NCBI GenBank assembly: GCA_028714495.1
Contig: JAQTMH010000001.1
Coordinates: 73,721-137,720 of the forward strand
Reading direction: 5' to 3'
Length of the DNA: 64,000 bases
Source: Patescibacteria group bacterium
GTDB taxonomy: Bacteria > Patescibacteriota > Patescibacteriia > JAHIZJ01
Positions 5,248 through 63,141 of the stretch are shown here, in pieces. A program made the translations under genes and the position numbers. Position 1 is the stretch's first letter, and the number at the start of each line of letters is the position of its first letter. The notes under the pieces were generated by a model. The model ran no database searches, was not told the origin of the DNA, and worked only from the letters and a program-made list of their open reading frames with translations.

Positions 5248-5283
5248 AAAAAAAGCCCCCAACATCATTAAGTTGTCGGGGGA
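5245..5283 (-). terminator. Rho-independent terminator for the minus-strand cupin-like gene (overlaps its stop codon)
   Basis: Minus-strand hairpin ccccgacaacttaatgatgttggggg followed by CTTTTTTTATC. Confidence 0.5.
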
Positions 5284-5876
5284 TACGGACGAGAGAAATC
5301 ACGGTAGACGTAATCATCCATGCTGAGGGGATCACCGCCATTGTGATTGGTGATGGCCAGAAGATTCAGGGCTGGAGAGCCTGTGGTTTGGAGAAAGTGC
5401 CATTGTTCAGGCAGCATCACAAAACTGCAGCCGGTAGTATCATCTACCCTATCCTCTTCCTCTTGGCCCCTGGCGCAAGCTCCAGCCAGATTGTAAAACT
5501 GTTCAGTCTTGCCCGTGTGATAGTGCCACGAGGTGCGGACCCACGGCCGAATCAGCTGAAGGAGCCACCCCAGCGTTCCATCCTCGCTCTGGGCCAGATA
5601 TACCGCTCCTGAACCAGCTGAACGTGCATGTCTCGATTCTTCGAAAACCGTGAAGCCCCTGAGCGCTAGGTGAACCCAGGCTTTACCGAATGGAACTTGG
5701 ATCAGTTGGAACCCGGGGAAACATTCCCCTAGCGGGTTCTGCTCGCTTGTACAAAGAACTGATACCAGCGTTGCCTGACGCAATCTCGAATCAACGAATG
5801 AGCGGAATCGCCCGAATCGCCCATCCGGAAAGAATGCGCAGACATCCTCATTGCCGAAAAGCTTGGGTTTATCCAC
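5268..5876 (-). CDS. Hypothetical protein with a cupin-like HXH...E motif, GTG start, GC-rich
   Basis: WHYHTGKTEQFYNLAG fits cupin motif 1 (G..HXH...E). Strong RBS aaAGGAGGcaaggc immediately before the GTG start. GC visibly higher than the flanks. Confidence 0.5.
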   Translation of the reverse strand: MDKPKLFGNEDVCAFFPDGRFGRFRSFVDSRLRQATLVSVLCTSEQNPLGECFPGFQLIQVPFGKAWVHLALRGFTVFEESRHARSAGSGAVYLAQSEDGTLGWLLQLIRPWVRTSWHYHTGKTEQFYNLAGACARGQEEEDRVDDTTGCSFVMLPEQWHFLQTTGSPALNLLAITNHNGGDPLSMDDYVYRDFSRPYPPTT

Positions 5877-6089
5877 GCCTTGCCTCCTTTTTCTTGGGCA
5901 TCCGGACGACAGATTGATTCAAAATGCATAAGAATGATAATAGCCTATCCGTAAATATCTGTAAAGATCCATGATTAATCATTCTTCAGCCAAAATATCA
6001 CTCTAGAAAAGTCGATCCTTGCGTTACTTCTTGAAGTATGATATTCTCGTCTTTAGTTGTTGATAATTGTTCGTCTCGCGCCCACCCCC

Positions 6090-6110
6090 GTCCCACCACA
6101 GAAGTGGGAC
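6090..6110 (+). promoter_or_regulatory. Perfect 7-bp hairpin immediately upstream of the first leader micro-ORF
   Basis: gtcccac-cacagaa-gtgggac. Confidence 0.4.
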
Positions 6111-6150
6111 TCGACCCGAGCCATATGACAGCTAAAAGGGAGGATGCAAG

Positions 6151-6171
6151 ATGCGCAAAGTCGCTGCCTAA
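6151..6171 (+). CDS. Leader micro-ORF MRKVAA (6 codons) with a strong RBS, copy 1
   Basis: GGGAGG at 6138-6143 with a 7-nt spacer, then atgcgcaaagtcgctgcctaa. An identical micro-ORF recurs at 6411. Confidence 0.45.
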   Translation: MRKVAA

Positions 6172-6215
6172 GGCCGTGCCTTACTTTTCCGGCTCCGAAA
6201 GTAATCGGTACGGCC
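6172..6215 (+). promoter_or_regulatory. Two-tier hairpin immediately after the leader micro-ORF stop (copy 1); candidate attenuator or ribosome-sensing structure
   Basis: Outer stem ggccgtgcc/ggtacggcc and inner stem ttacttt/aaagtaa. The equivalent element in copy 2 keeps the pairing with compensatory changes. Confidence 0.5.
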
Positions 6216-6288
6216 AACTCGGAACATCACCAATCTAGGAGCTAATCTGATCGTTCCAAACCGCAAACCGACCACACAGGAGGTTCTC

Positions 6289-6375
6289 ATGCGGAGATTC
6301 CTCGGGCAGGCAATCGGGCATTCGCCGCCCGTATCCGCCATCGAGGTCGTCGACACGAGGAGCGCGACGAAGTAG
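6289..6375 (+). CDS. Small protein (28 aa) MRRFLGQAIGHSPPVSAIEVVDTRSATK, copy 1 of a duplicated family
   Basis: RBS cAGGAGGttctcATG. The C-terminal motif IEVVDTRSATK recurs in the 6550 ORF. Confidence 0.45.
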   Translation: MRRFLGQAIGHSPPVSAIEVVDTRSATK

Positions 6376-6410
6376 CGCAGGCCGCTGACCAACCAAATGG
6401 AGGTTGCTTA

Positions 6411-6431
6411 ATGCGCAAAGTCGCTGCCTAA
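6411..6431 (+). CDS. Leader micro-ORF MRKVAA, copy 2
   Basis: GGAGG at 6399-6403, then an atgcgcaaagtcgctgcctaa identical to copy 1. Confidence 0.45.
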   Translation: MRKVAA

Positions 6432-6475
6432 GGCCGTGCCCGTGCTTTTCGGACTCCAAAAGCATCGGCATGGCT
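6432..6475 (+). promoter_or_regulatory. Hairpin after leader micro-ORF copy 2, covarying with copy 1
   Basis: Outer stem ggccgtgcc/ggcatggct (G-U wobbles) and inner stem gtgctttt/aaaagcat, replacing ttacttt/aaagtaa of copy 1 (compensatory base changes). Confidence 0.5.
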
Positions 6476-6549
6476 AGCTCGCCTTCCGAACCCACAGGAG
6501 TCAGGTGTTCATTCGATTCCGCAAAACAACCAACCCTATGGAGGTTCGC

Positions 6550-6690
6550 ATGCGGGAAACAACCAGTCGGGCACATCGGCATCCACCGCCGATGTTCGCC
6601 CTCGAGGTCGTCGACACGAGGAGCGCCAAGAAGAAGGCCACCAAGAAGAAGGCCGATGTCGCTTCCGGTCTGGAGAGCGGGCTCGTCTAG
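6550..6690 (+). CDS. Small protein (46 aa) MRETTSRAHRHPPPMFALEVVDTRSAKKKATKKKADVASGLESGLV, copy 2 of the duplicated family
   Basis: RBS tGGAGGttcgcATG in the same arrangement as copy 1. Shares the LEVVDTRSAKK motif. Contains a PPP stalling-prone motif. Confidence 0.5.
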   Translation: MRETTSRAHRHPPPMFALEVVDTRSAKKKATKKKADVASGLESGLV

Positions 6691-6849
6691 GTCTATCGCC
6701 GACCGAGGAGCATAACCAGTCTCTCTACGCGCGACAAGGCGTTTCGTACATTCACCACATGGTGTTTGCACGGAACGCCTATTTTATTTGCCATCGAACC
6801 AACACGCGTGATGAGTGAAAGACTTTCTATTAGTAAATTCGCTGACGAA

Positions 6850-7000
6850 GCCTAGGGCAAATACCCGCCATAGGCCCCCTTGATTTACCTAGCTGTGGTA
6901 AGAATGAAAAATGAATGGAGTAGAAAAAACGAAAGCAAGCAGTAACCGGAGGCGGGTATGGTTTTATTTATCTTAGCCATGGTAAATACCCGCCGAGCCC
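6850..7000. repeat. Cluster of short AAATACCCGCC-type motifs in both orientations in a convergent intergenic region
   Basis: aaatacccgcc at about 6856 and 6984. Inverted copy in ggaggcgggtatggtttt at about 6947. Related aaataccc repeats occur at 34943 and 38001. Confidence 0.5.
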
Positions 7001-7043
7001 CGGTCTCTGCGCCGGGGGAGGCGGAACCTATCGAAGCCAAGGG

Positions 7044-7081
7044 CAAATAAAAAACCCACGAAGCGATTCAGCCTCGTGGGG
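7044..7081 (-). terminator. Rho-independent terminator for hutU
   Basis: Minus-strand hairpin ccccacgaggctgaatcgcttcgtggg followed by TTTTTTATTT. Confidence 0.65.
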
Positions 7082-7094
7082 TTGAAATCAAAGA

Positions 7095-8738
7095 TCATTC
7101 AGGGGGTAGCATGGGCATATCGATTCTGTGCTTGCGCACATTGGCGATTGCCTCAGGTTCACCAGAGTCAGCGTGTCGGATCAGTCCGATAGCTGGGTCA
7201 TTGGTAAAGACCCGCATTGCCCTGTCGAGACACTCCTGCGTCGGCTCGATGACGAAGCACTGACCAGCGTGGATTGACTTGCCAATCCCGACTCCGCCGC
7301 CTTGATGCACGCTCACCCAGTCAGCTCCGCCAGCCGTGGCTAGAAGCGCGTTCAGAATCGGCCAATCGGCGATCGCGTCACTGCCGTCAAGCATCCCCTC
7401 GGTCTCACGGCTGGGCGAAGCCACTGAACCACAATCCAGATGATCCCGGCCGACCCAGATCGGCGCTGAAATGTCGCCCGCATGGATTGCCGCGAATATC
7501 TGCTCCACTGCCCGATATCGCTCACCCATGCCCAGCCAGCAAACTCGGGCTGGAAGTCCGCGCAGCCGACTGAAATCAATCTGCTTCTGGGCTTTCCGAA
7601 TCCAGTTCACCAGCCGCTCGTTATCCGGGAAAAGGCTGAGAATGATTTCATCCACGACTGCGATGTCGGCTGGATTGCCAGACAAGGCCGCCACCCGAAA
7701 CGGTCCCCGGCCCTGGCAGAACAGCGGCCGGACATAGAGCGGCACAAAACCCTGGAACTCAAAGGCGCAATCCAATCCCTCACCCTTAGCCCAGAGCCGC
7801 ATGCCATTGCCGTATTCAAAGGTCGTCGCGCCCTTCCGCATCAGAAGAACCATGACCTCCACGTGTCTGGTAATCGTCCGAAGAGACCGCCGCCTGTACT
7901 CAGCCTCATCTTCTTGGCGCAGACGGTTCAACTCTATAAATGACAACCCTTGAGGGCAGTAGCAGACGGGATCATGGGCTGAAGTCTGATCAGTCAAGAA
8001 ATTCGGTACCTGGTCATGATTCAGCAAATACTCAAGCAGATCAACAGCGTTGGCCTGAACTGCTATGGCGATTGCCAGGCCTTCGGCTTTGGCTTGGAAG
8101 GCGCGTTGAACTGCTTGAGGGATGTTACCAAACACCTCATCCACCCAGCCTTCTCGCCGGCAGCGTTGGATTCTGGCTGGATTGATCTCGGCAATCAGAA
8201 TGGTCGCGCCAGTCATCTTGCCAGCCGGCGCTTGTGCTCCACCCATACTGCCAAGACCACCTGAAACAATCAGCGTGCCTGAACCAGCCCCGGCCGCAGC
8301 GAATGTCTCAAAGGTCGCTTGCATGATTCCCTGCTGGTCAATGTAAGCCCAGCTTCCAGCAGTCATCTGGCCATACATGATGAGCTCCCGAGCCTCAAGC
8401 GGCCAGAATTCCGCATCCGTGCACCACTGCGGCACCAGCATGGAGTTGACGATCAGTACCCGGGGCGCCCCTTCAAATGTCCTGAGGATGCCAACCGGCT
8501 TGCCACTCTGCACCAGCAGTGTTTCATCGGGTTTCAGCCGACGCAGGGCCTCATCAATCTTCCAGAAACTTGGCCAGTTGCGCGCGGCCTTACCCCGACC
8601 GCCATAAATGATCAGCCTATCCGGATCTGCTCCCTGCACCACATTGTTGTAGAGCATTCGAAGTGCCCCCTCAATCCCCCAAGAGGCGCAGGTTCTTTCT
8701 GTGCCGGTTATCAGTTTGACCCGATCCGCTTCACCCAT
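7095..8738 (-). CDS. hutU: Urocanate hydratase (urocanase)
   Basis: 547 aa. Sequence spans MYGQMTAGSWAYIDQQGIMQATFETF, LLVQSGKPVGILRTFEGAPRVLIVNSMLVPQW, GRDHLDCGSVASPSRETEGMLDGSDAIADWPILNALL and VSVHQGGGVGIGKS, collinear with known HutU. RBS aaAGGAGGagcATG. Confidence 0.9.
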   Translation of the reverse strand: MGEADRVKLITGTERTCASWGIEGALRMLYNNVVQGADPDRLIIYGGRGKAARNWPSFWKIDEALRRLKPDETLLVQSGKPVGILRTFEGAPRVLIVNSMLVPQWCTDAEFWPLEARELIMYGQMTAGSWAYIDQQGIMQATFETFAAAGAGSGTLIVSGGLGSMGGAQAPAGKMTGATILIAEINPARIQRCRREGWVDEVFGNIPQAVQRAFQAKAEGLAIAIAVQANAVDLLEYLLNHDQVPNFLTDQTSAHDPVCYCPQGLSFIELNRLRQEDEAEYRRRSLRTITRHVEVMVLLMRKGATTFEYGNGMRLWAKGEGLDCAFEFQGFVPLYVRPLFCQGRGPFRVAALSGNPADIAVVDEIILSLFPDNERLVNWIRKAQKQIDFSRLRGLPARVCWLGMGERYRAVEQIFAAIHAGDISAPIWVGRDHLDCGSVASPSRETEGMLDGSDAIADWPILNALLATAGGADWVSVHQGGGVGIGKSIHAGQCFVIEPTQECLDRAMRVFTNDPAIGLIRHADSGEPEAIANVRKHRIDMPMLPPE

Positions 8739-8957: not shown

Positions 8958-8994
8958 AAAGGTCTCCCTAAATAAGAGAGCACTCTAATTAAGT
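8958..8994 (+). promoter_or_regulatory. Conserved 5'UTR element shared with the paralogous RRM gene at 63142
   Basis: aaaggtctccctaaataagagagcactctaattaag matches aaaggtcttcctaaagagagtgcgaattaataag in the 5'UTR of the 63142..63456 gene. Confidence 0.5.
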
Positions 8995-9005
8995 GAACAG
9001 TTACA

Positions 9006-9332
9006 ATGGCAAAAAAATTGTACGTCGGAGGTTTATCCTACGATGTTACCGACGCCCAGCTGAACGAATATTTCGCTCAGGCCGGGACCGTTGAGTCCGC
9101 CTCTGTAGTTATTGACCGAATGACCGGCCGCTCGCGCGGATTCGGCTTCGTGGAAATGGCAACGGATGGAGACGCCCAAAAGGCAATCGAAACCCTGAAT
9201 GGTCAGGAATTCGCCGGACGAACCATTACCGTCAATGAAGCTCGACCAATGTCTGACCGCCCGCGTGGCGGCGGCGGCGGTTTCGGTGGCGGACGAGGTG
9301 GTCGTGGTGGCTTTCAACGACGCGATTACTAA
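9006..9332 (+). CDS. RRM-type RNA-binding protein with a glycine/arginine-rich tail
   Basis: RNP2 LYVGGL and RNP1 RGFGFVEM. C-terminus RPRGGGGGFGGGRGGRGGFQRRDY. Confidence 0.9.
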   Translation: MAKKLYVGGLSYDVTDAQLNEYFAQAGTVESASVVIDRMTGRSRGFGFVEMATDGDAQKAIETLNGQEFAGRTITVNEARPMSDRPRGGGGGFGGGRGGRGGFQRRDY

Positions 9333-62379: not shown

Positions 62380-62760
62380 AGTGGTTTTTCTTTGCCCGTG
62401 GCTCCGATAATAAACCAAACTCCCCGAGCCTCCGCGCTTGGGGAATTAACGCGTTTTAGTAGTATCGTATCCTTTATCCGCCTCTTCGGCGGATCTTTGC
62501 CCTAGGCTTCGTCAATGTAAATAGAGAGTAAGGACTCCCTATACTTCAAACTGACTTTAGCCAGGTTAGTATTGATAACTCCACCATTGCCGTGCCAGTA
62601 TAACACGTATTATTGTTAACTAATGTTTATCCGCCTCCCCCCGGCACAGAGGCCGGGGCTCGGCGGTCCGCCCCGCACCCGAAGTGGTGTGGGGGGTTCT
62701 TTGCCTGTGGCTCCGCTTAAGTATGCAGTGAAATCATTGTATTAAGTCTCTACGATTGTT
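62380..62760. other. Structured noncoding region with repeated motifs and hairpins (candidate ncRNA(s), unassigned)
   Basis: ttctttgccYgtggctccg at about 62386 and 62697. tttatccgcctc hairpin module at about 62470 and 62628. Strong GC hairpins ccccggcacagaggccgggg and ccccgcacccgaagtggtgtgggggg. Confidence 0.3.
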
Positions 62761-63141
62761 GGTGTGAAGGCAAAGAAAAAGGCGGCGCGGGTCAGATGAC
62801 CGTTGCCGCCTGAGCGTGTCGGTGCAGCATCGCTGCCCCTTCACACCGGTGACGCGTCTCGTGTAGCGTCAGCTGGTGTTCCGGGTCGAAATGCTGCCAC
62901 GCCCATTGCTTCGCCTCATAGTGCACCTCCCCTTTCAAGGATGGCTACTACGTCCCCCGCGAAACGCTTCGACGGGGGCTCGGCGTGTGCGCATGCGCAA
63001 TCAACTCGCGCATGCATGCAGTAGGCAATATATCATAACGAATATTTTCAAGTCAAGCTATTTATTCACAACCAAAAAAGCCCCCAGGATTCTGAGAACT
63101 TTCTTGTGACTTTCCTTTTTTGAAAAGTCCCGGCGGTTTAC

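Follow-up and report, generated by a model that had tools for sequence, protein, structure and literature searches.

The DNA analyzed here is a window of 64,000 nucleotides (nt) from a metagenome-assembled genome (MAG) of Patescibacteria (Candidate Phyla Radiation, CPR), where it forms part of a contig of 343,867 bp. Within the window a 1.2-kb gap separates a cupin-like gene at 5268-5876 from the urocanate hydratase gene (hutU) at 7095-8738, both on the minus strand. The plus strand of this gap carries, at 6135-6690, two diverged copies of a single unit that are about 75% identical. Each unit consists, in order, of a micro-open reading frame (micro-ORF) with its own Shine-Dalgarno (SD) sequence and ATG, a two-tier hairpin, a spacer, and a second SD sequence and ATG leading into a small ORF of 28 or 46 amino acids (aa). 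To judge from the consecutive accessions of the flanking proteins (MDD5341769-771), the gap appears to hold no protein gene in the NCBI annotation. The cassette is flanked by the convergent hutU and, upstream, by the divergent cupin-like gene. An earlier note on this DNA had placed a cupin-like gene there; the divergent position stands, but the cupin identity is weak (Cupin_2 E 0.0017, below the Pfam cut-off).

The duplication is well marked. A repeat search returned two direct-repeat families with a spacing of 260-261 nt and 74-75% identity, and nhmmer matched each unit to the other at E ~1e-28, with no third copy in the 64 kb. Two blocks are identical in both copies. The first, ATGCGCAAAGTCGCTGCCTAAGGCCGTGCC, is 30 nt long, and a search with 25 nt of it gave 6151 and 6411 as the only sites in the window; the second, GAGGTCGTCGACACGAGGAGCGC, occurs in the window only at 6343 and 6604. 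Shuffle controls gave 0 matches for each. The combination of GGAGG and ATG at SD spacing is rare, with ~13 sites in the window, and 4 of these fall within the 450 nt of the two units.

The micro-ORF has the form GGAGG, 7 nt, ATG CGC AAA GTC GCT GCC TAA (MRKVAA-stop) in both units. In unit 1 it spans 6139-6171 with its SD (GGAGG at 6139-6143, ORF at 6151-6171), an arrangement that is kept in a related genome described below, and in unit 2 it spans 6399-6431 (GGAGG at 6399-6403, ORF at 6411-6431). Both hairpins begin at the base after the micro-ORF stop codon. The unit 1 hairpin (6172-6215) has a 9-bp outer stem, an 8-bp inner stem and the loop CCGGCUCC, and folds with -23.8 kcal/mol (z -4.25). 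The unit 2 hairpin (6432-6475) has the loop CGGACUCC and folds with -27.1 kcal/mol (z -5.07). On the minus strand both hairpins are weaker, and their G.U pairs exist on the plus strand only. The compensatory inner-stem changes between the copies are real and, in the structural register, comprise U-A to G.U and A-U to G-C. The hairpin starts 22-25 nt after the A of the micro-ORF start codon (AUG1), so that an initiating ribosome would fit without melting the stem and would have to unwind it within a few codons. The earlier note had thus correctly described the ~260-nt units, the strong ribosome-binding site with an identical six-codon micro-ORF, the two-tier hairpin directly after the stop and its compensatory changes, and, as detailed below, the second conserved ribosome-binding site and the small ORFs with their common C-terminal motif.

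The hairpins are followed by AACUCGG or AGCUCGC, with no U-run. They were rejected as canonical terminators of a trp/his/pyrBI-type attenuator, as no U-run follows and no alternative antiterminator pairing is predicted. Programmed bypass or read-through from the micro-ORF was likewise rejected, since further stops follow and the frame relation, read from the frames, differs between the units (138 versus 139 nt). Integron attC-like sites were discounted because R'/R'' core sites, judged by eye, are absent. A long-range helix between the two invariant blocks, proposed by RNAalifold, was dismissed because 26% of GC-matched windows pair as well. In a search of the whole window against Rfam 15 two tRNAs alone reached the gathering threshold, with no match in 6090-6690; a search of 5850-7150 at E values up to 10 gave three chance-level matches, all outside 6090-6690.

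Small ORF 1 (6289-6375, 28 aa, MRRFLGQAIGHSPPVSAIEVVDTRSATK) and small ORF 2 (6550-6690, 46 aa, MRETTSRAHRHPPPMFALEVVDTRSAKKKATKKKADVASGLESGLV) both have GGAGG 5 nt upstream of the ATG, in the context GGAGGTTC.CATG, and both contain A(I/L)EVVDTRSA(T/K)K. Small ORF 2 is the full-length copy; it would encode 61 aa if read from the GTG at 6505. Small ORF 1 is interpreted as a truncated paralogue because in the alignment its TAG stop falls opposite an AAG (Lys) codon within the KKK run of small ORF 2. Searches of Pfam, NCBIfam and PDB sequences gave no match for either small ORF or for alternative plus-strand ORFs, and a protein search with the small-ORF alignment returned no candidate homologue.

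The second SD (SD2) and the small-ORF start codon (AUG2) are predicted to lie in a local stem-loop of their own, formed with an upstream C-rich tract. In unit 1 this stem-loop occupies 6261-6294 around GGAGG 6279-6283, with CCGCA pairing to UGCGG (-12 kcal/mol, z -2.5); in unit 2 it occupies 6517-6557 around GGAGG 6540-6544 (-13 kcal/mol, z -1.8). The corresponding structure in the third copy, described below, has -14.7 kcal/mol. The tract itself is C-rich and G-poor (e.g. CCAAACCGCAAACCGACCACACA) and lies just upstream of SD2 at 6256-6278, at 6516-6539 and, on the minus strand of the related locus, at ~8125-8150. That it might serve as a loading site for Rho or another protein is speculation.

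HutU was used as an anchor to reach related loci. One of these, here termed L044, is a Patescibacteria MAG with a 71% identical HutU and the same gene order as the window (LspA, ComM-like protein, RRM protein, HutU, M23/LysM peptidase and LeuRS), and lacks the cupin-like gene. It carries one copy of the module at the syntenic site between the M23 peptidase gene and hutU, on the strand equivalent to the window plus strand. Its micro-ORF reads GGAGG-aagcga-ATG CAC AAA GTC GCT GTA CTT TAA (MHKVAVL-stop, 7 codons). The stem-loop starts at the base after the stop and is followed by a spacer and by a small ORF, GGGAGG-aaaggtacg-ATG, of 56 aa (MPKNHRSAPGCGPPTHAEIEMGTMTGFAKKKAMTRVANNEKKIAGTIAAEMEETGS), the positional orthologue of small ORF 2, which NCBI (PGAP) has annotated as hypothetical protein WC497_02910. 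The earlier note had made its reading depend on conservation of the micro-ORF, hairpin and small ORF in related genomes, and in this one all three are kept together. We take the module to be real because a related genome has the same module.

All three copies keep the SD and ATG before both types of ORF. Between the window and L044 the small ORF remains open, with indels in multiples of 3, and shares the pattern PP...A(I/L)E(V/M)...AKKKA. The micro-ORF core, ATGC(G/A)CAAAGTCGCTG, is identical at 15 of 16 positions between the two genomes, as against just 48% at synonymous sites of hutU and the M23 peptidase gene. The sole core difference is non-synonymous (Arg to His), and the wobble bases are all identical. 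This suggests that the RNA may be under constraint no less than the peptide, although only three or four codons are compared and p is ~0.04-0.09. L044 has a 10-nt indel and seven rather than six codons, and even so no base separates its stop codon from the first pair of the stem, as in the window units; we regard this stop/hairpin junction as the most telling conserved feature.

A covariance model, R1, was built from unit 1 alone and used to search ~175 kb of CPR DNA. Its only matches were unit 2, which scored 72.7 bits, and the L044 copy, which scored 23.2 bits (E ~1e-3). In the three-sequence alignment of the hairpin 94% of the cells are paired, compared with 29-49% in slid-partner controls, and 6 of the 17 pairs have changed on both sides. 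The RNA structure that the earlier note had argued from covariation is supported across these three copies, in that the hairpin is conserved on the plus strand and stays paired through sequence turnover, L044 included. The apical loops of all three hairpins share GG(C/A)(C)UCC (GGCUCC/GGACUCC). A sister strain (L001) is near-identical across the region and was excluded from the covariation analysis as uninformative.

Signals for a separate transcript surround the cassette. A weak sigma-70-like match at 6038-6067 on the plus strand (ATGATA-18-GATAAT, 9/12 matches) is a candidate for its promoter. In the same relative place L044 has a near-consensus promoter, TTGACA-17-AATAAT with TG (11/12). 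Just downstream of the weak promoter match the window has a 5'-proximal hairpin at 6090-6110 on the plus strand, GTCCCAC-CACAGAA-GTGGGAC as read from the sequence; a similar hairpin, GGAAGTCC...GGACTTCC, directly follows the L044 promoter. At the 3' end, a terminator scan and folding place an intrinsic terminator at 6737-6789 on the plus strand, a long hairpin followed by TATTTTATTT; the scan found its sole plus-strand terminator for the cassette at 6761-6789. In L044 the small ORF is followed by a G+C-rich inverted repeat and a T-run (GTTTTTATTT), which were read from the sequence and were not flagged by the terminator scan.

The opposite strand of the cassette contains a 178-aa ORF at 6235-6771, and the earlier note had named this ORF as the alternative that would make the plus-strand signals coincidental. 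A gene caller did call it automatically on one Logan contig, and an antisense ORF is open in L044 too. Among 1.84 billion representative proteins, however, the 6235-6771 ORF matched no sequence but its own and low-complexity proteins; searches of Pfam, NCBIfam and PDB sequences with it were empty, and the antisense ORFs of the window and L044 show no similarity to each other (E above 100). It has no SD sequence, its start lies inside the terminator hairpin, and the apparent absence of an NCBI protein gene holds for this strand as well. We consider the minus-strand ORF spurious and not conserved, and it is almost certainly not the real gene of this region.

The searches for further copies found the module in two lineages and three copies, and we conclude that it is lineage-restricted and rare. 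A degenerate micro-ORF pattern, ATGCGNAARGTNGCNGCNTRRGG, matched 10 times among GTDB species genomes and 27 times among JGI metagenomes, with 0 matches among viral contigs; on inspection every match lacked both an SD and the hairpin, and all were judged to be chance. The degenerate pattern A(I/L)EVVDTRSA(T/K)K had 0 matches in JGI metagenomes. A relaxed pattern, ATGCRCAAAGTCGCTG, matched 28 times in viral contigs, in all cases within long ORFs or without an SD. Around hutU anchors of 63-67% identity (L045-L050, L080 and L081) synteny is lost and the covariance model finds no copy; a further locus (L079) was too short for use. An RNase Y gene is present in the related CPR locus L045. For the cupin-like protein a single real homologue was found (62% identical), encoded on three JGI contigs from three metagenomes (L013, L014 and L015). 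Each of these contigs breaks off 177 nt upstream of the gene, at exactly the same position in all three and before the region of interest. The shared end suggests that a repeat or strain-variable region, at the expected place of the cassette, interrupts the assembly.

Our preferred explanation, which we hold tentatively but regard as quite plausible, is that the element is a genuine cis-acting leader, made of the micro-ORF and hairpin, of a real small-protein gene that has been duplicated here. Several points weigh against it. The exact-pattern scans gave no further copies, although their patterns predate L044 and would miss L044-like variants. The covariation draws on three copies from two lineages, which makes for thin statistics, and the alignment was fitted to the model. 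The similarity between the small proteins of the window and L044 is weak (38% over 26 aa, E 0.05), and the peptides show no sign of purifying selection: the paralogues differ by 10/7/7 changes over the codon positions, with 2 synonymous versus 13 non-synonymous codon changes, and window-to-L044 substitutions number 20/24/20, without position bias. The identical wobble bases of the micro-ORF fit constraint at the RNA level as well as at the peptide level. Finally, a specifically stabilizing role, set out below, is proposed by analogy, and we hold it with less confidence than the leader reading as a whole.

Some of the same observations would favor a structured non-coding RNA, either a small RNA (sRNA) or a cis element, in which the SD- and AUG-like blocks are RNA-level signals (a 30S or protein site, or a pairing seed) and the small ORFs are not functional proteins. 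Nucleotide-level conservation is highest in the micro-ORF block, every wobble position included; the small-ORF substitutions have no codon-position bias; and small ORF 1 is truncated. The two paralogues have the same base at every site of the EVVDTRSA block, synonymous ones among them, whereas L044 has not conserved the block; gene conversion or a paralogue-specific constraint is as likely a cause of this identity as selection on the peptide. What such an RNA would not explain is that all four SD and ATG pairs have canonical spacing and are kept in L044, and that the small ORF stays open through in-frame indels with its shared residues. The RNA matches nothing in Rfam, and the pairing between its invariant blocks is no better than the GC-matched background. 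We regard a purely non-coding element as unlikely, if still to be taken seriously.

The earlier note likened the layout to translational attenuation by a leader peptide of the erm/cat type, whereby a ribosome stalled on MRKVAA would melt the hairpin and so expose the downstream SD. As in the erm, cat and cmlA attenuators, a leader ORF of 6-7 codons with its own SD (GGAGG, 7 nt, ATG and 6 codons twice in the window; 7 codons in L044) is followed immediately by a stable stem-loop and then by a second SD-led ORF. This arrangement is conserved, and the downstream SD is partly sequestered. The sequestration is not, however, the work of the hairpin. The hairpin and the SD2 stem-loop are separate and self-contained, ~45-70 nt apart; the downstream SD and start lie ~65-95 nt beyond the hairpin, and no alternative pairing joins the two elements. 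When the micro-ORF and ~11 nt past its stop were masked in folding, in imitation of a terminating ribosome, the mean unpaired probability of SD2-AUG2 was essentially unchanged in the three copies (0.45 to 0.44, 0.37 to 0.42 and 0.30 to 0.35). Unlike in the erm, cat and cmlA systems, then, the stem-loop neither contains nor competes with the downstream SD, no alternative structure is predicted, and leader stalling would free no stem that holds SD2. Nor does the sequence contain a drug-dependent or other known arrest motif in the micro-ORF, or a resistance determinant downstream; the regulated product would be an orphan small protein of 28-56 aa without a family match rather than a resistance gene or enzyme. 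Attenuation of this type is therefore improbable.

We also considered an autoregulatory operator, in which the basic small protein would bind the leader hairpin through the loop GG(C/A)(C)UCC and repress its own synthesis, as in ribosomal protein leaders. In its favor, the tail of the product is basic and Lys-rich, all three hairpins keep the apical-loop motif, and each paralogue has a hairpin of its own. Against this, the small proteins show no similarity to known RNA-binding or ribosomal proteins, small ORF 1 lacks the basic tail, and nothing ties binding at the hairpin to SD2. We rate this operator low.

As alternatives to attenuation the earlier note had offered a small toxin or a family of modified-peptide precursors, that is, a type I toxin-antitoxin-like locus or a cluster for ribosomally synthesized and post-translationally modified peptides. 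The tandem small ORFs with a common motif, and the adjacent, divergent gene for a cupin-like, metal-binding protein, are what would recommend them. In L044, however, the cupin-like gene is missing, the neighbors are the M23 peptidase gene and hutU, no other modifying enzyme is conserved beside the module, and EVVDTRSA is not conserved. For a toxin the peptides are of the wrong character, as read from their sequences: they are polar and basic, with a longest hydrophobic run of 7 residues and no hydrophobic or transmembrane segment. Both suggestions have thus become very improbable.

Several further features of the surrounding DNA were observed. The G+C content is 58-60% in the cassette, ~43-50% on the side of the cupin-like gene and just downstream, and 57-61% in hutU. 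A perfect GGAGG at SD spacing is uncommon before the long ORFs of the window and is present before the cupin-like gene (5887, minus strand), hutU (8747, minus strand) and all four cassette ORFs. A 16-nt motif, RAGCCNNRGGCAAAKA, occurs in five copies versus 0.21 expected by chance, with a hairpin after each: at 6848-6863 and 7034-7049 on the plus strand and at 62389-62404, 62494-62509 and 62698-62713 on the minus strand. All five lie in two intergenic regions, each just downstream of an SD-led small ORF, and one of the associated hairpins is a bidirectional terminator after hutU. Both intergenic regions also contain a two-tier hairpin element of ~40 nt, CCGCCGAGCCCCGG(T/C)CTCTG(C/T)GCCGGGGG(G)AGGCGG, at 6990-7018 (plus strand) and 62638-62666 (minus strand), with 93% identity. 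The region 6690-7090 folds with z = -3.0 and has no Rfam match above chance (Mahella-1, 15 bits). At ~62870-62945 on the minus strand there is a strong-SD small ORF, AAAGGGGAGGTGCACT-ATG, of 16 codons (MRRSNGRGSISTRNTS), preceded by a G+C-rich hairpin and followed by an intrinsic terminator; it resembles the cassette in style and has no detectable homology to it. In the sister strain an insertion of ~25 nt at ~8985-9015, corresponding to ~6862 in the window, forms its own hairpin (tccccga-cttga-tcgggga) within the motif-plus-hairpin element downstream of the cassette, a variation typical of structured RNA or of a small mobile repeat.

The leader reading that we prefer can be set out as follows. 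The module would be transcribed on its own and encode a basic, lineage-restricted small protein of ~46-56 aa, which has a PP motif, a Lys-rich AKKKA tail and, as its core, A-(I/L)-E-(V/M). Its leader would comprise a 5' hairpin, a strong SD with a translated micro-ORF of 6-7 codons, M(R/H)KVA(A/VL), the two-tier stem-loop abutting the micro-ORF stop, and the local stem-loop in which the small-ORF SD and AUG are partly sequestered. Ribosomes would load at the strong SD1 and AUG1 and meet the stable hairpin almost at once. The complex of ribosome and hairpin may then protect the small-protein mRNA at its 5' side in cis and set its expression, most probably, by analogy with known stabilizers, by anchoring a ribosome and stabilizing the mRNA. 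In the window genome the leader and the 5' part of the small ORF were duplicated in tandem, and the upstream ORF copy was later shortened by an AAG-to-TAG change. The second copy of the leader would do likewise for the downstream half of the resulting dicistronic RNA, protecting the downstream cistron after any processing.

A more specific proposal, which we regard as doubtful, is that the micro-ORF/hairpin junction is a new ribosome-sensing leader particular to a Patescibacteria lineage. Initiation at the micro-ORF, or termination against the hairpin, would report translational capacity and set the level of a small basic protein that is possibly associated with ribosomes or nucleic acids; the read-out elements would be the conserved GGCUCC loop together with the C-rich tract that precedes SD2. 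The module is unannotated in the window genome and matches no RNA or protein family, yet it has been kept across two lineages with compensatory change in the hairpin; the cis-regulatory RNAs and small proteins described so far in the CPR are, to our knowledge, few. Should the junction prove functional and ribosome-dependent, it would offer a simple and portable case of control by a leader ORF, or of mRNA protection, in bacteria with reduced genomes, and a seed for finding more such leaders; otherwise it is one more orphan small gene. Its general importance is limited by its very narrow known distribution.

Among known systems the module is most comparable to the ribosome- or SD-dependent 5' mRNA stabilizers of Gram-positive bacteria, rather than to an attenuator that unmasks a ribosome-binding site. 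In the STAB-SD of cry3A, the 5' exonuclease RNase J1 is blocked by a strong SD located well ahead of the start codon (PMC4113751), and on hbs mRNA it is blocked by an initiating ribosome (PMC5737220). The window has a corresponding arrangement, with GGAGG at 6139 lying 150 nt before the AUG at 6289 and GGAGG at 6399 lying 151 nt before the AUG at 6550, and L044 is similar; SD strength was judged here from GGAGG itself. As in the Bacillus thuringiensis cry3A STAB-SD, the ermC leader and Bacillus subtilis hbs mRNA, the leader is structured, has 5' hairpins and carries, close to its 5' end, a strong GGAGG-type SD far upstream of the main start (here by ~140-150 nt); a ribosome bound or paused there would shield the mRNA. 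Unlike those leaders, the present one has a complete micro-ORF with a conserved stop/hairpin junction, and the module is repeated within a dicistronic RNA.

In the mgtL/mgtA, pyrBI and repY/repZ leaders, translation of a tiny ORF decides whether an adjacent stem-loop can form. The hairpin described here differs from these in having no U-tract, and no pseudoknot partner or overlapping stop and start was found. Dual-function sRNAs and small-protein mRNAs such as SR1/SR1P and RNAIII/hld are likewise short, structured and independently transcribed, with an RNA here of ~480-700 nt and an ORF of at most 56 aa; unlike them, the present RNA has no known trans target or seed region, and no relationship to them in sequence or in Rfam. 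The element, which matches no described family and lacks the defining feature of erm/cat leaders, resembles both known leader-ORF systems and known 5' stabilizers.

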